From the sequence record NC_025445.1: a DNA stretch of 40,981 nt; one strand, written 5' to 3'. Every line of letters begins with the position of its first letter. Position 1 is the stretch's first letter. Position numbers and translations under genes: made by a program. Shown piece by piece: positions 1 to 24,410 of this stretch. The notes beneath the pieces are model-generated. The model made no database searches. It worked only from the letters and a program-made list of their open reading frames with translations, and had not been told where the DNA came from. The DNA comes from Escherichia phage J8-65.

Positions 1-259
1 TCGACCCGAAGGAGCGCCTGCGCCCCCGTACGCCTGTGCGCGTGCGCGTGCATGACGTGTGCGCATTATGCGTGCGTGCCTGCGCGTGCGGTATTGCTCG
101 CGTGCGTGCGGTATAGTTCGCGCGTGCCCGTTTCCATTGTCGCGGTGTGGTGCTGTGTGGTGCTGCGTCCTGCTGCTGCGTGCTGCGCCACTGCTACCAC
201 TGGACGCGCCTGCGCTGGGCTGCTGGTGCTGGGCGGTGCTGCTGTGTGTATCGGTGGCT
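1..259. repeat. left direct terminal repeat (DTR)
   Basis: bases 1-259 are identical to 40723-40981; GT-rich, A-poor; typical T7-supergroup terminal redundancy. Confidence 0.85.
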
Positions 260-686
260 GGGCGCGGGGCTATCTATCTTTTTTCGTGGCGCTGCTGTCA
301 TAGCTCGCTTGCTGTGTGTGCTGTGTGTCGTGTGCGGTACTGTGTGCCATCCTGCTACGCTACCGCCTGCGCCCTGTGTCTCCAGCTCATCGCGTCACTG
401 TGTAACACTCTGATACTTGCTATCCGTTCGCGTTCACTCAATCGTCACTCCGTGTCTCTTTCGTTCCGCTCCGCGCTCCGCTATCGCACTGCGTGCTGCG
501 TCGCTTACGCTGCGTATCGCTACAGCTATACACTACAGTTACTTTCATTTAATCATTGATTTAAAAGGATTTATTTACGGTTATTCTGCTGTGTGTAAGC
601 TACGCAATAACCTATTCAATCAAATATTTATTATCAATGATTCCAGTGACTTATCGCCTTTTTGAGCTATTCAGTGAAAATAATTC

Positions 687-715
687 TTGCAATGTTGTTT
701 GTGATTTGCTGTAAT
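687..715 (+). promoter_or_regulatory. sigma70-like early promoter (TTGCAA-N17-TGTAAT)
   Basis: -35 TTGCAA 687-692, 17-nt spacer, -10 TGTAAT 710-715, in AT-rich block upstream of first genes. Confidence 0.5.
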
Positions 716-792
716 TCATCTCGCCGGACGACACAGCGTTAACGTGTCGGACGGTGTAAGACGGTAACACTGTTCTTTAACAATCTGGTGTG

Positions 793-821
793 TTGACAAG
801 GCAAGCTCACTATGCTGTAAT
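793..821 (+). promoter_or_regulatory. sigma70-like early promoter (TTGACA-N17-TGTAAT)
   Basis: consensus -35 TTGACA 793-798, 17-nt spacer, -10 TGTAAT 816-821. Confidence 0.6.
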
Positions 822-928
822 GCTTCCAGTCAGTCAGCAAGCTAAACAGTCATGGATAAAGACGTTAAAACCCACGTAGGCGAACTGATACGGTTTAATC
901 ATCTCAGAATGGGCGCTGATTAAAACGG

Positions 929-957
929 TTGACAGGATGAAACGAGTATGCTGTAAT
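929..957 (+). promoter_or_regulatory. sigma70-like early promoter (TTGACA-N17-TGTAAT)
   Basis: -35 TTGACA 929-934, 17-nt spacer, -10 TGTAAT 952-957; same architecture as 793-821. Confidence 0.6.
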
Positions 958-1007
958 GCACACCAGATTGACAGGCAGCAAGCCAGTCAGTCAGAAGTAA
1001 AAAGTAG

Positions 1008-1036
1008 TTGACAAGCTGAATACGATGTGATGTAAT
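1008..1036 (+). promoter_or_regulatory. sigma70-like early promoter (TTGACA-N17-TGTAAT)
   Basis: -35 TTGACA 1008-1013, 17-nt spacer, -10 TGTAAT 1031-1036. Confidence 0.6.
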
Positions 1037-1467
1037 CAGCACCGAGTTGAAAGGTTGCAAAACAACCTGCTCTGAGTGAACGTAAACTGGCCACGTAGTG
1101 TCACGGCCTCATGGGTATCCGGCGCAGCTAGGAACTGGTGAGGGCACCGCCGAAAGGCAATAGGGGTAGCGCCCGGTGCAAGGGAACGGAGAAGCGCGAT
1201 AGACGCAGCGCAGTATCAGCACAATCCCGAACGTCTTATAAGGCGCGGAGTGTAGCGGGTAGGTAGGCAAGCTGGTAACGGTGAGCCGGACTGCTGGAGG
1301 ACTCCTGAGAGTGGATGCAGACAATATCCACGGCGCGAAATGGGCGGGGCGATTTTTCAGGGTAGTGAATCCGACAAGCCAATCAATGCCAACGAGTGCA
1401 GACTGTACGGCGCGTCACAATGGGTTCACTATCCACCTGAAAATAGCCAACAACTGGAGAAATCAAT

Positions 1468-1857
1468 ATGTACCGTATCTATGCAAGCGCATATCGTCAG
1501 GGCAACGCTGAGTCAGTCAATCTGGCACTGCACTGCAAGGCACTGCGAACGGTGCAGGACATGTTCGGAGTGATTCCGGTCACACTGACAGGCAAGTTCG
1601 ACAATGCGTATGAGTTACGCATGGTCTTCCCTGTCGATGGAATCTACGAAATCCGGCAGGCTGTTAAGCTGTTTTGTAAAGCCTTCGAACAGGACTGCAT
1701 CATGGTAGTGACCAAAGACGACGATGCAATCTTCATGGACTCACCGTATCCGGGCAAGCCTGCTGGCAAGCTGGTCAGCAAGACTAACGAGGAAATGGAA
1801 GCCGGGCAGTTCACTGCTTGGACTTACGACGGTGAGCAATTTTGGGTAGTGGAGTAA
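1468..1857 (+). CDS. hypothetical early protein (129 aa)
   Basis: ATG start, GGAG upstream, first ORF after promoter cluster. Confidence 0.6.
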   Translation: MYRIYASAYRQGNAESVNLALHCKALRTVQDMFGVIPVTLTGKFDNAYELRMVFPVDGIYEIRQAVKLFCKAFEQDCIMVVTKDDDAIFMDSPYPGKPAGKLVSKTNEEMEAGQFTAWTYDGEQFWVVE

Positions 1858-1868
1858 GGAGCATGACC

Positions 1869-1943
1869 ATGTCCACTGCACTGTGTGTTATTGCGGCGGC
1901 GTGCTGGGTCATTGACCAGCGACTGAGCCGTCGCCGTGGCTGA
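1869..1943 (+). CDS. putative 24-aa hydrophobic micropeptide
   Basis: AAGGAG 7 nt upstream of ATG 1869; MSTALCVIAAACWVIDQRLSRRRG (hydrophobic core, basic tail); below ORF-track cutoff. Confidence 0.2.
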   Translation: MSTALCVIAAACWVIDQRLSRRRG

Positions 1944-1949
1944 TAGCCT

Positions 1950-1971
1950 ATAGCGTCCTACGGGGCGCTAT
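1950..1971 (+). promoter_or_regulatory. post-stop GC-rich stem-loop
   Basis: ATAGCG-tcctacgggg-CGCTAT after micro-ORF stop. Confidence 0.3.
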
Positions 1972-2004
1972 GTGAAATCAACCAAACCGACAAGGGGTAA
2001 CATC

Positions 2005-2532
2005 ATGACTACTGTAAAATACACCGCGTTCAAAGACGCTGCGGCGCTGGATAAAGCTATCGAAGCGACCGTTAAAAAGGCGCACTCCCTCCGTAACGAG
2101 ATTCAGAACGTTGCGGTCGGCATTATCCTGCACGCTTACCATCACGGCGACTATACCCGTGCTGAATCCTTCACCAACCAACTGGGTGACGGCGTTCGTG
2201 GTAAAGCACTGGTTGACTGGTTCGTCCAGTTCGGCGGCCTGATTGTAGGCGAGCATGAGGGTGGCAAGTCTGGCTTCGTTGGCTGGAAAGGTGCCGACTT
2301 CATCAAGAAGAACATCGACAAGGCGAAAGCCACGATGTGGTGGACTTGCAAGCCGGAAGCGGCCTTCGAAGGCTTCGACCTGCAAGAAGCGCTGGACAAG
2401 CTCATTGCCAAAGCTGAGAAGGCAATGAACAAGGCCAATGAGCTGCGCCACGAAGGGCGCGATGAGGATGCGAACAAGGTTGTCGTGCCTCAGAACGTGC
2501 TGGATGGGCTGCGCAAGCTGAAAGCTGCGTGA
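2005..2532 (+). CDS. hypothetical early protein (175 aa)
   Basis: ATG 2005 with AAGGGG RBS (ORF-track start 1972 is GTG); function unknown. Confidence 0.6.
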   Translation: MTTVKYTAFKDAAALDKAIEATVKKAHSLRNEIQNVAVGIILHAYHHGDYTRAESFTNQLGDGVRGKALVDWFVQFGGLIVGEHEGGKSGFVGWKGADFIKKNIDKAKATMWWTCKPEAAFEGFDLQEALDKLIAKAEKAMNKANELRHEGRDEDANKVVVPQNVLDGLRKLKAA

Positions 2533-2539
2533 TTACTGA

Positions 2540-2563
2540 GAAGGCATTCAAGCGAGTGCCTTC
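2540..2563 (+). promoter_or_regulatory. post-stop GC-rich stem-loop
   Basis: TGATTACTGA then GAAGGCA-ttcaagcgag-TGCCTTC, 7-bp stem. Confidence 0.4.
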
Positions 2564-2610
2564 GATTGTAACCACGGCAATAATGCCACAATCCTAACTG
2601 GAGACTTAAT

Positions 2611-2922
2611 ATGTCCAAATTAACTGTAGTCCTGCTGAACAACCTGCCTGCCTCTGCTTTCGGTGAAGGCGTTAAACTGGAAGACGTGCAGAGCAAGCAG
2701 TACGTCGCAATCACTGACGGTCAGGGCTACCTGATTGCAGGCATCAACAAGGACGGCGACTCGAAGGAAGAAATCGAAGCGCACTTCCGTGAACAGGGTC
2801 TGGATGCTGACATGCCGCTGGCGCTCATCGCCATGCTGAACGGCGTGCCTTTCGTTGACGCTGCCGACGTTGTAGGCGCAGATATCGACGAGGTTTACAG
2901 CGTCGAGTCTGACGACGAGTAA
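2611..2922 (+). CDS. small acidic early protein, paralog 1 (103 aa)
   Basis: strongly acidic with C-terminal ESDDE; shares a D-x-Q-x-x-L...KDGD motif with next two genes. Confidence 0.65.
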   Translation: MSKLTVVLLNNLPASAFGEGVKLEDVQSKQYVAITDGQGYLIAGINKDGDSKEEIEAHFREQGLDADMPLALIAMLNGVPFVDAADVVGADIDEVYSVESDDE

Positions 2923-2936
2923 GCTGGGCTAACTGA

Positions 2937-2959
2937 CAGGCCATTCGATGAGTGGCCTG
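2937..2959 (+). promoter_or_regulatory. post-stop GC-rich stem-loop
   Basis: AACTGA then CAGGCCA-ttcgatgag-TGGCCTG. Confidence 0.4.
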
Positions 2960-2988
2960 AATTGTTATTCCAAGCCAAAGGAGGCTGC

Positions 2989-3258
2989 ATGATTCGTGTG
3001 AGTTTGGTCAAAGACGCATCCGGCAAGGTGGTATTCTACCTGCTGGACAATCAGAAAGGGCTGACCCTGCTGGCGTACGTCAAAGACGGCGACCCAAGTA
3101 CGCAGGAGATTCTGGACTTCCTGATTGGTCAAGAGACCTATAGCGAGCTGCTGTTTGACGTGTCTGGCCGCACCGAAGCTGCCAATATTGAGTACGTCGA
3201 GGAACAGCACGGCGAGGTGACGCTGGAGTTCATCGGCACCATCCCGTTCGCTGAGTGA
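2989..3258 (+). CDS. small acidic early protein, paralog 2 (89 aa)
   Basis: ATG 2989 after AAGGAGG (ORF-track start 2962 is TTG); LDNQKGLTLLAYVKDGD motif. Confidence 0.65.
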   Translation: MIRVSLVKDASGKVVFYLLDNQKGLTLLAYVKDGDPSTQEILDFLIGQETYSELLFDVSGRTEAANIEYVEEQHGEVTLEFIGTIPFAE

Positions 3259-3265
3259 TTACTGA

Positions 3266-3287
3266 CAGGCCATCTGCGGGTGGCCTG
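3266..3287 (+). promoter_or_regulatory. post-stop GC-rich stem-loop
   Basis: TGATTACTGA then CAGGCCA-tctgcggg-TGGCCTG; same stem as 2937-2959. Confidence 0.4.
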
Positions 3288-3328
3288 AACTGTACTCACC
3301 CAACAATCAAAGTCTAAGGAGACTTATC

Positions 3329-3604
3329 ATGGCAAATGGTTACATCGTACGTGGCACCGAATCAAACAAAGTCGTGGCCTACGCACTGGAAAAGAGCGGC
3401 CACTATCTGGCGCACACTCGCCGCGACAACGAGCCGACCGATAGCGAAGGCGTGTTGGCCGAACTGAAACGCGAAGGCGTGCCGCCTGAACTCATCTTCA
3501 TCCTGTCTGGTATCCAGATTCACGAACTGCAAGATGCAGCCAAGCGTGTGTGGGGTGAGGGCGTAGAGCTGGAGCACATCGGTATCGTGGACGAAGCTGC
3601 GTAA
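3329..3604 (+). CDS. small acidic early protein, paralog 3 (91 aa)
   Basis: TAAGGAG RBS; LEKSGHYLAHTRRDNEP motif related to paralogs 1 and 2. Confidence 0.6.
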   Translation: MANGYIVRGTESNKVVAYALEKSGHYLAHTRRDNEPTDSEGVLAELKREGVPPELIFILSGIQIHELQDAAKRVWGEGVELEHIGIVDEAA

Positions 3605-3619
3605 CAGCGGGATTGACTC

Positions 3620-3643
3620 AAGCCAGTGTCTCGGCGCTGGCTT
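3620..3643 (+). promoter_or_regulatory. post-stop GC-rich stem-loop
   Basis: AAGCCAG-tgtctcggcg-CTGGCTT. Confidence 0.35.
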
Positions 3644-3680
3644 TATGGCAATACTGCCCCATCCATTTGAGGATTTAAAC

Positions 3681-3932
3681 ATGGCTAAGTTCGAACTGGT
3701 AAAATTCATCGACCCGTCTGACAACTCTGAGACCTTTGCTCAGTTCACCGACGACCGCACACAGGTGGCTATCTACACCAGTGAGTCGGCGGCGCGTGAC
3801 AACTTCGGTGAAGAGATATTCTTCGATTCGGTTGAAGAAGTGCGCAAAGGTGGCGGCCCTTACGCTGATGCACTGGAAGCGGCGCTGGAAGAAGGCGAAG
3901 TCGTTGACACTCTGGACGACGACGAAGAGTAA
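3681..3932 (+). CDS. small highly acidic early protein (83 aa)
   Basis: ATG 3681 with GAGGA RBS; about 24 D/E vs 6 K/R; C-terminal DTLDDDEE. Confidence 0.6.
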   Translation: MAKFELVKFIDPSDNSETFAQFTDDRTQVAIYTSESAARDNFGEEIFFDSVEEVRKGGGPYADALEAALEEGEVVDTLDDDEE

Positions 3933-3944
3933 GCGTGACGCCCG

Positions 3945-3968
3945 GTTGCCTCCTTGCGAGGGGGCAAC
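3945..3968 (+). promoter_or_regulatory. post-stop GC-rich stem-loop
   Basis: GTTGCCTCC-ttgcga-GGGGGCAAC. Confidence 0.35.
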
Positions 3969-4004
3969 ATGGCAATCATGCCATAACCTACTGGAGTATT
4001 GAAC

Positions 4005-4418
4005 ATGACTAAACTCGTACTGATTCACGGCATCGCTGGTGAGAAATTTGACGACGGTATCTCTGCACCTGTGCTGGCGCTGGAAGGTGAAGAGACCTTC
4101 GCTGTGCTGCAAGGTCTGGCTGAGGGTAGCGATATGGTACTGGCATCAGAAACAATTATCGAACAAGCCAGCGCAATCCGTGAGGCCGAGCACCTGCGTG
4201 GTGTAGCCGCAACGCTCGGTCACTGCGCTGGTAACGGCGGCCTGCGTGGGCATTCGGTCGGCGGTGTATTCCCCTGCGTAATCTTCTCGAAGGGCAACCC
4301 ACATGTGCATCTCGACTGGTGTTTCCTCGCACCGAACGGCGATGAGTTCGACGGCTTCGTAAGTTATGAAGATGCGTATGCAGCCGCGCAACAATGGCTG
4401 GAGGAAAGAGAGGTATAG
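4005..4418 (+). CDS. hypothetical protein (137 aa)
   Basis: ATG 4005 with GGAG RBS (ORF-track start 3999 is TTG). Confidence 0.6.
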   Translation: MTKLVLIHGIAGEKFDDGISAPVLALEGEETFAVLQGLAEGSDMVLASETIIEQASAIREAEHLRGVAATLGHCAGNGGLRGHSVGGVFPCVIFSKGNPHVHLDWCFLAPNGDEFDGFVSYEDAYAAAQQWLEEREV

Positions 4419-4419
4419 T

Positions 4420-4716
4420 ATGAGCAGAAGTGCTAAGTGGGATGCGTTGGTTCAGTGGGTGAAGGACAGCTTCGGCCCACCACCACAGCGCGTGGAAGTT
4501 GCAGACCCTGAGCCATTCGAGTACGTGACCAAGACCAGTGAGCAACTGGAGATTGGTGACTACATAGTAGCGTACTCTGGTTATGTGCAGCGCATCGGTG
4601 CCGTCGAGTATGATGGCAAACGACTGGTCGTTACGAAGGCAGGCCATGCTCCTGAGTATGAGTTCTACGCCTACGAGAATGACAAGTTCTCTATCCGTAA
4701 AGTAAAAGGTAAATAA
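4420..4716 (+). CDS. hypothetical protein (98 aa)
   Basis: ATG 4420 after GAGGAAAGAGAGG RBS, abuts upstream stop. Confidence 0.55.
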   Translation: MSRSAKWDALVQWVKDSFGPPPQRVEVADPEPFEYVTKTSEQLEIGDYIVAYSGYVQRIGAVEYDGKRLVVTKAGHAPEYEFYAYENDKFSIRKVKGK

Positions 4717-4719
4717 ATC

Positions 4720-5235
4720 ATGGCTATTAACTTCGCAACATTTGACAAACAGCAGTTCGAAGTAACCAAACGTCTGGCCGCAGAGATTGACGAGCGCCCG
4801 GAAGTATCCGACGTGATTGAATTTCGTGGTGGCTTCCTGCCAAAGATGACGTACGTGGCAGCAATTAAGGCAGGCCGACTGGACATGGTGGATATCATCC
4901 CGCCGACCCGCACTGGTGCCATCATCGCACGCAACATCACACTGCTGGCTGGTCTCGGCACCAAGTCTCTGGATGCAGCAGGTGAAACAGAGCGTGCTGT
5001 TCAGCTCCGCATGGCGGCAACGTTGGCAATCCGTTTCGCATGTGAAGAGACGGTACACGCCAGCTACCACGACTGGTATCAGGCATGTGAGAATGTGCCT
5101 GCCGACCTGAGCGAGACGCACGCAAGTGTGCTGTTCGCTGGCGAGGTACTGGATGCCATGCTGCAACAGTTGAAGGAAGGACTGGGTGAGCTGCTGGCGG
5201 CGGCGAGCGAGGTGAAACGTGCAACGCTCCACTGA
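4720..5235 (+). CDS. hypothetical protein (171 aa)
   Basis: ATG start, tight packing with flanking genes. Confidence 0.6.
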   Translation: MAINFATFDKQQFEVTKRLAAEIDERPEVSDVIEFRGGFLPKMTYVAAIKAGRLDMVDIIPPTRTGAIIARNITLLAGLGTKSLDAAGETERAVQLRMAATLAIRFACEETVHASYHDWYQACENVPADLSETHASVLFAGEVLDAMLQQLKEGLGELLAAASEVKRATLH

Positions 5236-5239
5236 TTTA

Positions 5240-5392
5240 GTGGTGCGTAAATCACCCACTGGTAAACACTGGTGGGTGGTGTACGCTGACCTACCGGGCA
5301 GACCGTTTGCTGTCCGTGACACAAAGTGGCAGGCCGAAGCTAAGCGTGATGACCTGCAACGTATCGTAAACAGAATGGGAGTACCAGCATGA
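5240..5392 (+). CDS. possible small protein (about 50 aa, GTG start)
   Basis: open frame fills the gap between flanking genes and ends in ATGA overlap with next start; no clear RBS. Confidence 0.25.
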   Translation: MVRKSPTGKHWWVVYADLPGRPFAVRDTKWQAEAKRDDLQRIVNRMGVPA

Positions 5393-5631
5393 CCATCATC
5401 AAAGACGAAAGCAAACTCGAAGTCGGTTCCGCATACAAGCTGAGCGGCGGTGTGTTCTGTTCGGTTGCACTGGACGTGAACGCAGGCAAGTTCATCTTCA
5501 AAGGGCGTGACGAATACAACCCGGACATGCTGCACTTCGAAGGTGTTACCGATGGCCGGGCGCAGTTCTTGTACCCGGAGCGGCTGGCCGATGGGCAGTA
5601 TGATTTGTCCAAGGTTGAAACAATCAAGTGA
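5389..5631 (+). CDS. hypothetical protein (80 aa)
   Basis: ATG start, GGGAG upstream. Confidence 0.55.
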   Translation: MTIIKDESKLEVGSAYKLSGGVFCSVALDVNAGKFIFKGRDEYNPDMLHFEGVTDGRAQFLYPERLADGQYDLSKVETIK

Positions 5632-5663
5632 CTTACTCGTGGCATTTCGTGAGAGATGCCACC

Positions 5664-5903
5664 ATGAAAGTAACTGTATTGCACAACATCGGAGGAGATA
5701 TGCTCAAAGTAATATTGTTGTTCCTGCTTCTGGTAATTATTTGGGGAGCGTTATGGGTGGGTCTTGCATCACTGGTGCTTATCCCTGCGGTCGGTGAGTC
5801 AGCCACTTCAACACTGGGCACACTGCTCGGCATGTTGGTGGGCTGGGGTCTGATGCAGTTGAGCCTGAGTGTAGGCCAGAATCGGGGGTGGATTAAATGG
5901 TGA
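5664..5903 (+). CDS. small membrane protein with two predicted TM helices (79 aa)
   Basis: ATG 5664; VILLFLLLVIIWGALWVGLASLVLIPAV and LGTLLGMLVGWGLMQLSLSV hydrophobic segments. Confidence 0.55.
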   Translation: MKVTVLHNIGGDMLKVILLFLLLVIIWGALWVGLASLVLIPAVGESATSTLGTLLGMLVGWGLMQLSLSVGQNRGWIKW

Positions 5904-6337
5904 AGCCTAAGTATAAAGTCGGGGATGAAATCGTAGGCGACGAAGGCACTGGCACCCGGTCGGGTAAGCTGAGTATCATCGCTTGGGTTAACCCTGACCG
6001 CCGAGCGTGGGAGCGTAGCGGGGAGACTCGTTACATCGTGAGCTGGATTGGTGAGCGCCTGAATGCGCAGCCGGATATCAGCCACTACAAATCTGACTGG
6101 CTGGAAGAGAACACCAGTCTGGTCAGCACGCCAGCCGAGAAGCGCGGTCGGTTCATGTGCTTGGTCGAAGGCAGCAACGCGCCGCCGAAGGTTGAGCACA
6201 TCACTGAGCGCGAGGCGCGTGAAGAAGCTGAACGTCTGGCAGAGCGGTGCGGAGGTACTGTCCGTGTGCTGCAAGTTGTGGCCAGCGTGAAGATGAAGAA
6301 GAAGATTCTGTACACACCGGACTGGGATAACGAATGA
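5897..6337 (+). CDS. hypothetical protein (146 aa)
   Basis: ATG start overlapping upstream stop. Confidence 0.55.
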   Translation: MVKPKYKVGDEIVGDEGTGTRSGKLSIIAWVNPDRRAWERSGETRYIVSWIGERLNAQPDISHYKSDWLEENTSLVSTPAEKRGRFMCLVEGSNAPPKVEHITEREAREEAERLAERCGGTVRVLQVVASVKMKKKILYTPDWDNE

Positions 6338-7047
6338 GAAAGTCAGTGAGCAATGATGAGTGGCCGGAGCTGGCGAGGCGTCTGCCGATAGGACAAAAGC
6401 GTCGGACGTTTCACGCTTGCTCACGCTCATTCAGTAAGACCAACTTCGAGTATGGCCGGAACAGCGAAGGCGTGTGGTGCAAGTGCCATCGCTGCGGCCA
6501 TGCTGATTTCAAACCCCTCAACCATGCACCGTATGTACCGCCAGCCAAAGAGCAGGTGAAGATACCGGGCGACGTTGTTCCGCTTATCGAAGTGATAGCG
6601 AAGCAGCCCGGACTGCTACTGCCAGCGTTGGAGAAGTATGAGCTGCTGCCACACCTGAGCGTGCTGACTGCCAGCCCAACGTACGGGCGTATCTACTTGC
6701 CGGACAACTCGGCAAGCTACTGTGGTCTGGACTACACCGGGCGGCAGTTCATTCCGTGGCGCTCGCCACACAACCATCTAATGGCAGTGACAGTAAGTAA
6801 TCACGACGACGATGAGTTCAAAGGGATATGGATTTACGACAGCGCATCAGCATATCTCGACCACGTTCGTCGTGGTGACAGAGTGGATGGCAATGCAGCG
6901 TTCGTAGCCAATGCCGACGATGCCACCGTACGCGCTCTGGTTAGCGTTGTGCTGGCCAATCGTTATGAAGTGATATCATTGCAGCACCGACAGAGCGACA
7001 GGCTCAGGCGTGAGCTGAGAGTGTGTGGCAGGGTGCGAACAATATAG
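6334..7047 (+). CDS. putative primase-like zinc-ribbon protein (237 aa)
   Basis: C-x16-C-x-C-x2-C cluster (CSRSF...WCKCHRCGH); sits directly upstream of helicase as in T7-like primase-helicase modules; no clear TOPRIM seen. Confidence 0.45.
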   Translation: MRKSVSNDEWPELARRLPIGQKRRTFHACSRSFSKTNFEYGRNSEGVWCKCHRCGHADFKPLNHAPYVPPAKEQVKIPGDVVPLIEVIAKQPGLLLPALEKYELLPHLSVLTASPTYGRIYLPDNSASYCGLDYTGRQFIPWRSPHNHLMAVTVSNHDDDEFKGIWIYDSASAYLDHVRRGDRVDGNAAFVANADDATVRALVSVVLANRYEVISLQHRQSDRLRRELRVCGRVRTI

Positions 7048-23369: not shown

Positions 23370-24362
23370 ATGGCAGCTAACTCCTATACCCCGAACCAGT
23401 TCCGTCCACACTGGGGTGGCGCGAACTCTGACAACGACATTCACCTTGAGGTGTATGACCGTGACGTGCAGACCCAGTTCATTTACAACTCCATCTTCCG
23501 TTCCGGTCTGACCAACTTCAAGTCTGTGGCTAACCAGTCCAACACTTGGCGTGGCGACCGCCTCGGCAGCGTGACCGTGAAAGGTCGTAAATCTGGTGAG
23601 TCTCTGGTGAACCAGCCAGTTCGCTCTGAGAAGCTGATTGTCACCGTGGATACCGTGTCTTACATTCGTATCCCGATTGACTATCAGGACGACTGGACTG
23701 CGCCGGACTTCCGTGCTGAGCTGACCCGTAACATGGGTACTTCTCAGGCGAAGGCGTTCGACCAAGCGCACGTAATTCAGCTCCAGAAGTGTGCTGACTT
23801 CGTGCCTCCGACTTCTCTGGCTGGCGCATTCAACGCTGGTATCAAAGAGAAGATTACGCTGACTGGCACCGTCGCTTCTGAGGAAGACGACGCAAGCGCA
23901 ATCGTGCATGGCCACAAGAAAGTTATCGAAGCGTTCATTCGCCGCGATGCCGACCTTGGCCGTCTGGTTACGCTGATTGACCCGGCGTGGTTCAGCATCC
24001 TGCTGGAGCACAAGAAACTGATGAACGTTGAGTTCACTGGTGGCCGTGGTGTGAACGACTTCGCAATGCGCCGCGTTGCGTACGTCAACGGTATTCGCCT
24101 GATTGAGAGCAATGCTTTCCCGCAGGCTGCAATCACCGACCACATCCTCGGTGCTGACTTCAACGTCACCGCCGACGAAATCAAGCGCAAGCTGATTGTG
24201 TTCGACCCGTCTCTGGCTCTCGTTACCGTCGAAGCCCAACCGCTGTTCAACCGCGTGTGGGATGACGAGAAAGAGATGACCAACGTTCTGGATAGCTTCC
24301 ACATGTACACCGTGGGTCAGAAGCGTCCTGACGTGGTGGGTGTCGTAACCACCGAAGCCTAA
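23370..24362 (+). CDS. major capsid protein (330 aa)
   Basis: size and position as T7 gp10; followed by a terminator-like hairpin. Confidence 0.85.
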   Translation: MAANSYTPNQFRPHWGGANSDNDIHLEVYDRDVQTQFIYNSIFRSGLTNFKSVANQSNTWRGDRLGSVTVKGRKSGESLVNQPVRSEKLIVTVDTVSYIRIPIDYQDDWTAPDFRAELTRNMGTSQAKAFDQAHVIQLQKCADFVPPTSLAGAFNAGIKEKITLTGTVASEEDDASAIVHGHKKVIEAFIRRDADLGRLVTLIDPAWFSILLEHKKLMNVEFTGGRGVNDFAMRRVAYVNGIRLIESNAFPQAAITDHILGADFNVTADEIKRKLIVFDPSLALVTVEAQPLFNRVWDDEKEMTNVLDSFHMYTVGQKRPDVVGVVTTEA

Positions 24363-24372
24363 TGGCAAACTC

Positions 24373-24410
24373 GAAGCCCTTCTCTGAGGGGCTTCTATGA
24401 TTGTCGTTAC
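24373..24410 (+). terminator. stem-loop after capsid gene (T-phi-like candidate terminator)
   Basis: GAAGCCC-ttctctgag-GGGCTTC 7-bp GC-rich stem (24373-24395) followed by U-rich tatgattgtcgtt. Confidence 0.5.

Follow-up and report, generated by a model that had tools for sequence, protein, structure and literature searches.

A hairpin-punctuated array of small acidic early proteins in Escherichia phage J8-65, without detectable kinship to Ocr

Here we describe the early region of Escherichia phage J8-65 (NC_025445.1; the window, throughout, is this whole stretch of 40,981 bp), in which four genes, here called A to D, encode small, strongly acidic proteins that an earlier note, made from the DNA letters, had taken for a tandem family, with the first three as paralogs, and for candidate DNA mimics of the T7 Ocr type. 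We find that the locus is a cluster of early, accessory, fast-evolving and strongly acidic mini-proteins, and that each gene lies in a cassette with its own Shine-Dalgarno (SD) sequence and a stable hairpin before it, three of the hairpins being copies of one covarying element. The reading that we favour, with a probability of about one half, is that A to D are accessory early proteins that bind host proteins and are expressed from a hairpin-punctuated operon transcribed by the host, with no homology to Ocr.

Results

The acidic genes are real, variable and fast-evolving

Genes A to D (Table 1) are real genes: they have protein-level orthologs in 13-15 phages (15 records for A, 14 for C), their pairwise ratios of nonsynonymous to synonymous substitution (dN/dS) lie between 0.27 and 0.45 (A, 0.45; C, 0.38), and each has an ATG start preceded by a strong SD sequence. 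For B we place the start at the ATG at 2989 because the TTG at 2962 falls within a hairpin. The acidity ascribed to A, B and C in the earlier note is borne out by the residue counts in Table 1, and D, described there as more acidic still, has exactly the composition that was given for it. Together with the open reading frame (ORF) at 3999-4418, the four genes have the five most negative charge densities among the ~48 ORFs of the genome (D, -0.22 per residue; A, -0.15). Moreover, every member of the families to which they belong, as defined below, carries a net negative charge, which ranges from -9 to -20 in A/A2, from -5 to -16 in B/C and from -5 to -18 in D. The LDDDEE tail of D is specific to the lineage of the window. 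Acidic tails with a near-terminal aromatic residue occur in many A, B, D-variant and c17 proteins (DDVDFSA, DDIDFDA, GTIPFAE, DDDGDFEAE, NDGDFEALE; for example in L002 at 1819-2157, in P0047 and in the window at 3244-3258) and are not conserved in A, C and D of the window.

Gene content and order differ between relatives. The order is A-B-C-D in the window, B-C-A-c0s-D in Kc261 and A-C-A2 in Lidtsur; A, B and C are missing from ROV85 and D from smaasur, and D is present in 10/12 of the genomes compared. The dN/dS values of A, C and D are 0.32-0.45, as against 0.13-0.20 for the S-adenosylmethionine (SAM) lyase gene, the PHROG-1448 gene and the neighbouring families c5, c1b and c7, and the array families evolve 2-3 times faster than these neighbours.

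B and C are paralogs, and A joins them through family profiles

Single-sequence alignment relates only B and C, which are 35% identical over 51 aa (Smith-Waterman z=5.4; 1/1000 shuffles as high). The alignment of A with B was not significant (z=1.7) and that of A with C (z=3.0) was rejected as out of register, and at this level the pairings of A with B, C and D were all rejected on one or the other of these grounds. We then compared profiles of families obtained by clustering all early-region proteins from 12 genomes. With hhalign, B and C matched over nearly their full length (93.1%, E 3e-7) and A matched A2, the family of Lidtsur_1861 and P0028-P0035 (95.8%, E 8e-9). Once extensions derived from spacers had been trimmed, A/A2 matched B/C at 67.5% (E 5e-5) with a score of 30.8, compared with 11.6±1.9 for a block-shuffle null (maximum 19.4, 0/100 as high) and 10.0 for a reversed profile. 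In every version of the comparison the best three of the 66 family pairs were A/A2-B/C, B/C-c0s and A/A2-c0s, all in register; these cross-family pairs stood at 25-39% after members from phage LIMEzero had been added, when the best other pair, c0s-c10, reached 9.1%, and in the trimmed-profile run unrelated families remained at or below 3.2%. In a relaxed alignment, NKDGD-SKEEIEAHF of A falls on VKDGDPSTQEILDFL of B, which is the motif picked out in the earlier note. D showed no detectable sequence similarity to A, B or C (hhalign at most 1.5%).

We regard the paralogy of B with C and of A with A2 as firm at the level of sequence. The cross-link between A/A2 and B/C, which draws on profiles, predicted topology and the position of the motif, has moderate support, and a single A/A2/B/C superfamily, perhaps including c0s, is probable, sequence by itself being no proof of it. 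In sequence, D forms a family of its own, although its predicted topology is similar. The proposal that A, B and C are tandem paralogs with a common motif stands in part: B and C are related by pairwise and profile alignment alike, and A joins them via family profiles only. D, the fourth protein, aligns with none of them, nor did the earlier note claim that it does. The broader picture of a diversified family of small acidic early proteins holds (B~C 93%, A~A2 96%), in a locus that is hypervariable and faster-evolving than its surroundings. The superfamily may also be larger than the window alone implies. The family c0s, a further acidic family of ~93 aa, occurs twice in most other bonnellviruses (for example L002 2223-2504 and 2842-3126) and has no copy in the window; BLAST groups it with the C-terminal portion of the PHROG-1448 protein (175 aa), and profile comparison ties it weakly to A/A2 and B/C (12-39%).

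The predicted domains are small alpha/beta folds

The structure of D was predicted with AlphaFold2 (AF2) from 22 sequences; for A and C, a single construct in which a linker joins the two was modelled from a paired multiple sequence alignment of 35 rows, the inter-domain arrangement being ignored. The D model (predicted local distance difference test score, pLDDT, 89.2) has strands at 4-11, 16-23 and 28-32, helices at 35-40, 51-57 and 59-71, a further strand at 73-78 and a disordered acidic tail. The A domain (pLDDT ~78) is predicted as beta-beta-beta-alpha-alpha-beta with an insert after beta1, and the C domain (pLDDT ~76) as beta3-alpha3-beta. The predicted topology, beta3-alpha2/3-beta, therefore agrees between A and C, and in both models the DG(D/E)(S/P) motif forms the beta3-alpha1 loop, so that the 'KDGD / RRDNEP' motif of the earlier note lies in the same loop.

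No significant fold match was found for A-D. The lists of structural neighbours share weak matches to beta3-alpha3 N-terminal capping domains of the mandelate racemase/muconate lactonizing enzyme (MR/MLE) enolase superfamily (2og9, 2poz, 2p88, 4mgg, 2qde, 3q45, 2zc8), consistent with a small alpha+beta topology common to A, C and D, and a Foldseek search of BFVD returned only D orthologs and an uncharacterised LIMEzero protein (template modelling score, TM, 0.69). As modelled, A, C and D are small alpha/beta domains, unlike the all-helical Ocr. Kinship with Ocr is not supported, since neither the sequences nor the predicted folds resemble it.

The families are confined to two phage genera

A-D had no meaningful match in Pfam, PHROG or NCBIfam; profile searches of PDB sequences gave only chance matches at E up to 10 and no homology to Ocr (1S7Z), and tblastn searches with A and D against 72,556 plasmids gave no match. 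A k-mer-seeded search of 5.8 billion proteins returned 16-19 clusters per family, nearly all on contigs of ~42 kb, and an exhaustive HMMER search with D against 1.84 billion (1.84e9) representatives returned four genuine clusters. The other 54 HMMER matches of D were rejected as long repeat proteins (for example the ankyrin-repeat protein P0055) that match only a short Ala/Glu-rich helix; the D profile draws such ankyrin-repeat and other repeat proteins (P0055-P0109) through a 'GG-x-YA-x-AL-x-AAL-x-GEVV' helix-turn, which is compositional and repeat noise and not homology.

The families are limited to the early regions of Bonnellvirus and Waewaevirus. Gene B is rare: outside the window, its only carriers were smaasur, Kc261 and a small number of metagenomic contigs. 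The early array of LIMEzero, a Waewaevirus, contains an A-type protein (ORF7, 97%), a B/C-type protein (ORF9, 90%), two of c0s type (ORF6 and ORF8) and one of D type (ORF12, 96%), which indicates that the array predates the split of the two genera.

A covarying hairpin punctuates the array

Spacers of 66-78 bp lie between the array genes, in contrast to the genes downstream, which abut, and every array spacer contains a stable hairpin (z -3.6 to -6.9; Table 1). Three of these hairpins are copies of an element that we call R1, in which the lower stem has 4+4 bp and often takes in the stop codon, the internal loop is asymmetric (UGA / AUUG) and the upper stem has 10 bp. The three copies are 81% identical, compared with 13-35% amino-acid identity between the genes that they flank. 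A covariance model of R1 found 22 copies on the + strand in 13 relatives; in the alignment, 94.9% of paired cells form standard pairs, against 29-44% in slid controls, 8/18 pairs carry compensatory changes, and 0/500 shuffles reach the observed score. In LIMEzero, an R1 copy follows each of ORF3 to ORF8 (2952-3000, 3251-3298, 3563-3609, 3918-3966, 4291-4342, 4650-4696). The gene that comes after the R1 element behind the PHROG-1448 gene is A, B, C or another, depending on the phage.

An Rfam scan of positions 1-7000 assigned no family to the hairpins, and a sigma-70 scan of 7 kb returned one weak site, where 4.5 are expected from shuffles, and none inside the R1 copies. We rejected a reading as typical intrinsic terminators, only the hairpin at 2937-2959 being followed by a weak T-run. 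In some spacers (window 3645-3680 and 3971-3986; L007, L013, P0026/P0027) a conserved mini-hairpin, ATGGCAATnnTGCC, opens a false in-frame start, 'MAILP(Q/H)PF..', which extends the ORF calls for D (to 3645) and for several orthologs and raised the profile comparison from 67% to 94%. Elsewhere in the window, a weak R1 match (16 bits) at 24361-24408 coincides with the stop codon of ORF 23370-24362, which we take to be the major capsid gene, and this hairpin may be a terminator or stabiliser.

A truncated A2 paralog follows the array

Downstream of D, a remnant of an A2-type paralog is fused in frame to a conserved early gene (Table 1), whose orthologs in smaasur, Kc261 and other phages start at the Met of 4134. 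Relative to smaasur, the block from C to this gene has been replaced, and the 4005-4418 fusion looks like a recent deletion scar. With A, B and C intact and a fourth copy truncated (A2', 4005-4133), the window thus probably contains four representatives of one ancient and much diverged superfamily of acidic proteins of ~90-110 aa, for which a disordered acidic tail is predicted in addition to the beta3-alpha2/3-beta fold.

Genome and early operon

The window is a complete Autographiviridae genome of the genus Bonnellvirus (J8-65/smaasur type), all of whose genes lie on the + strand. It is identical in sequence to the IMG/VR uncultivated virus genome (UViG) 2706795724, and positions 2000-6000 are ~95% identical to Escherichia phage smaasur (genus Bonnellvirus, species J865). 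The acidic array lies downstream of three sigma-70-like promoters, a SAM lyase gene and the PHROG-1448 gene. The three promoter-like repeats are probably strong early promoters for the host sigma-70 RNA polymerase and would drive the early operon as a whole; three host promoters are annotated at the corresponding positions of LIMEzero, and the arrangement may be likened to promoters A1-A3 of T7. Where T7 has Ocr, this phage has the SAM lyase, the other classic anti-restriction gene, which is annotated as an anti-restriction SAMase in smaasur. The records of LF82-23 and LIMEzero, like phrog_2226, label the lyase 'SAM-dependent methyltransferase', probably a propagated misnomer. The PHROG-1448 protein is basic, with an isoelectric point (pI) of 9.2, and is conserved in all relatives compared.

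Positions 1-560 contain no convincing gene and are rich in short GC-rich direct repeats (TGGTGCTGCG, GCGTGCGGTAT and others; families D2, D4, D6, D11 and D19), and this is probably a terminal-repeat or packaging region. Autographiviridae vary in their leading regions, where anti-defence genes are often found (PMC12455610), and bonnellviruses differ mainly in small hypothetical genes (PMC7552041). Our literature search found no functional work on the early ORFs of Bonnellvirus, J8-65 or LIMEzero.

Table 1. Early-region features of the window, in genome order (D/E and K/R, numbers of acidic and basic residues; MFE, minimum free energy)
Feature	Position	Strand	Characteristics
Direct repeats GTTGACA-N17-TGTAAT (three copies)	792-823, 928-959, 1007-1038	+	repeat search, family D1
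T3-type SAM lyase (anti-restriction), first early gene	1468-1857	+	Pfam PF23780, E 5e-26; phrog_2226, E 5e-29
Basic early protein, PHROG 1448; anchor gene directly upstream of the array	2005-2532	+	175 aa; phrog_1448, E 1e-52
Two-stem hairpin, copy 1	2528-2576	+	R1, 66 bits; MFE -23.3 kcal/mol, z -6.9; overlaps stop codon of upstream gene
Gene A	2611-2922	+	103 aa; D/E 21, K/R 6; net charge -15; A/A2 family
Two-stem hairpin, copy 2	2925-2972	+	R1, 67.8 bits; z -4.9
Gene B	2989-3258	+	89 aa; D/E 16, K/R 6; net charge -10; B/C family
Two-stem hairpin, copy 3	3254-3300	+	R1, 58.6 bits; z -4.9; overlaps B stop codon
Gene C	3329-3604	+	91 aa; D/E 16, K/R 9; net charge -7; B/C family
Different 10-bp hairpin and GGCAATACTGCC mini-hairpin, C-D spacer	3618-3660	+	MFE -19.5 kcal/mol, z -3.6; no R1 match
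Gene D	3681-3932	+	83 aa; D/E 24, K/R 6; net charge -18; separate family
10-bp hairpin and ATGGCAATCATGCCAT mini-hairpin, spacer after D	3944-3985	+	MFE -23.9 kcal/mol, z -4.4
A2-type paralog remnant, fused in frame to next gene	4005-4133	+	43 aa; matches N-terminus of intact P0035 and Lidtsur_1861 (97-98 aa)
Conserved early gene, smaasur_5444 type, with A2 remnant at 5' end	4134-4418	+	phrog_18383, E 9e-19

Discussion

On the reading that we favour, the array proteins would be dispensable accessory factors that bind host proteins stoichiometrically and neutralise them. Their likely targets would be basic proteins that interact with nucleic acids, for instance defence nucleases or factors of the nucleoid or of replication, which they may bind through bulk negative surface charge and acidic tails, with separate paralogs aimed at separate targets. 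The hairpins, by analogy with the ribonuclease III (RNase III) sites of T7, may process or stabilise the polycistronic early mRNA and, because they are much better conserved than the genes, they might also act as recombination points for cassette shuffling. Several observations weigh against this reading. The assignment of function draws on context, charge and analogy, and charge by itself has little discriminating power, since acidity is shared by most of the small early proteins of the genus. The acidic positions themselves are mostly unconserved (2/21 in A, 5/16 in C and 9/24 in D), gene-wide dN/dS stays below 1 throughout, and the spacers contain no promoter detectable in the sigma-70 scan. 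In addition, the link between A/A2 and B/C varies with the composition of the alignments and falls to 25% (E 8e-4) once LIMEzero members are added, and a first merged-profile value of 94% had to be rejected as an artefact of translated spacer, in which twelve aligned columns were 'MAILPQPF..' N-terminal extensions of a few sequences, that is, the translated conserved spacer hairpin.

A rival reading, that of the earlier note, is that the proteins are Ocr-like DNA mimics, whose carboxylate surfaces imitate B-DNA and block type I restriction-modification (R-M) or bacteriophage exclusion (BREX) enzymes, with the paralogs diversified in an arms race. DNA mimicry in a functional sense is possible, but we consider this specific version quite unlikely. 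The high charge density of D and A, the net charge kept across each family and the position of these early genes near an anti-restriction gene all speak for it, and DNA mimics are known to span many unrelated folds, to be often acidic and, among those catalogued, to act broadly against defence systems (bioRxiv 10.1101/2025.06.06.658234). However, neither Ocr nor any solved mimic showed similarity to them in sequence or fold, the models are of small alpha/beta domains and not of an elongated helical dimer, and the poor conservation of acidic positions argues against a precise phosphate-mimicking pattern. Moreover, the phage already has a SAM lyase against type I R-M, the searches with A and D found no homologs in plasmid leading regions, and gene-wide dN/dS is below 1. 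It is also unlikely, if a little less so, that the proteins serve the phage's own programme, either as partners or chaperones of basic phage proteins, such as the conserved PHROG-1448 protein that adjoins the array, or through C-terminal tails that dock on replication proteins. T7 gp2.5 and gp4 have acidic C-terminal tails that end in Phe, and the C-terminus of the single-stranded DNA-binding protein (SSB) reads DDDIPF. Tails such as DDVDFSA, DDIDFDA, IPFAE and DGDFEAE recall these, and the presence of D in most of the genomes compared would suit such a role, but the tails are unconserved within families (those of A and C in the window end in SDDE and DEAA, respectively), the proteins evolve faster than their neighbours, and copy number and presence vary, as in ROV85 and smaasur, in a way unexpected for a core function.

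We think it very unlikely that the ORFs are decaying or near-neutral passengers, with acidity as a compositional by-product and the RNA hairpins as the functional elements. Substitution rates are indeed high and presence patchy, one copy (4005-4133) is visibly truncated, and the hairpins are far better conserved than the genes that they flank; against this, dN/dS is well below 1 in many pairs, both genera have kept the families, AF2 predicts the folds with confidence, no gene lacks a strong SD sequence and net charge is kept in all members. A bolder extension of the favoured reading, which we hold to be unlikely as it stands, is that A/A2, B/C, c0s and possibly D form one ancient, reshuffled beta3-alpha3-beta superfamily, each member of which would be a decoy or charge mimic of a different host nucleic-acid-binding protein, in defence or housekeeping, carried in RNase III-punctuated cassettes whose hairpins double as recombination sites. 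If this were true, the locus would be an Autographiviridae counterpart of the PeSL system of T4, an anti-defence cassette array with a fold that is new among anti-defence proteins.

Proteins that counter host defences or take over the host have been shown to come from leading-region genes in T7-like phages, and A-D with their relatives make up a compact and experimentally tractable set from phages that plate on E. coli K-12. Our analysis shows which of the array genes are paralogs, excludes kinship with Ocr and provides confident models that have no known fold match, while the covarying inter-cistronic hairpin gives a handle on early mRNA processing and accessory-gene shuffling in Autographiviridae. 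If one paralog proves to have a defined target, the family would offer a natural variant series for studies of specificity.

Comparison with known systems

Like T7 Ocr (gp0.3), the array proteins are small, very acidic, early and encoded at the leading end of a T7-like genome, and the charge density of D is close to that of Ocr. They differ from it in having no sequence homology, in being predicted as alpha/beta where Ocr is all-helical and elongated, in giving no sign of a dimer or of charges spaced like phosphates, and in that the first gene is the SAM lyase and not a member of the array. They may also be compared with other small acidic phage inhibitors, such as T7 gp2, T7 gp5.9, Ugi and the Acr DNA mimics AcrIIA4 and AcrIF2, which are single domains of 50-100 aa, several of them alpha/beta, whose negative surfaces occupy the nucleic-acid-binding sites of host proteins.

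The hairpins resemble the early RNase III sites of T7 (R0.3, R0.5, R1, R1.1 and R1.3), which lie between cistrons of a host-transcribed polycistronic early mRNA and consist of two stems, one above and one below an asymmetric internal loop. The likeness is one of architecture and of inter-cistronic placement in early mRNA; there is no sequence relationship, the stems here are shorter (8 + 10 bp), and cleavage here is putative. In the PeSL cassettes of T4-type phages, an intergenic stem-loop motif that contains an early promoter flanks small variable ORFs in a hyperplastic region, and gene content and order vary between close relatives (PMC2839356, PMC4122927). The array is similar in that a conserved intergenic motif flanks variable ORFs whose order changes at the motifs, and differs in having no sigma-70 promoter in the spacers, in belonging to another phage lineage and in that synteny is the sole evidence of shuffling. 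Finally, its layout is that of the early ORFan arrays of phiKMV-like phages and of LIMEzero, whose ORF6-9 and ORF12 belong to the same families; those ORFs are equally uncharacterised and so provide no function. With a predicted fold that has no known match, the locus is an uncharacterised case of a known type, the leading-region accessory gene arrays of T7-like phages.

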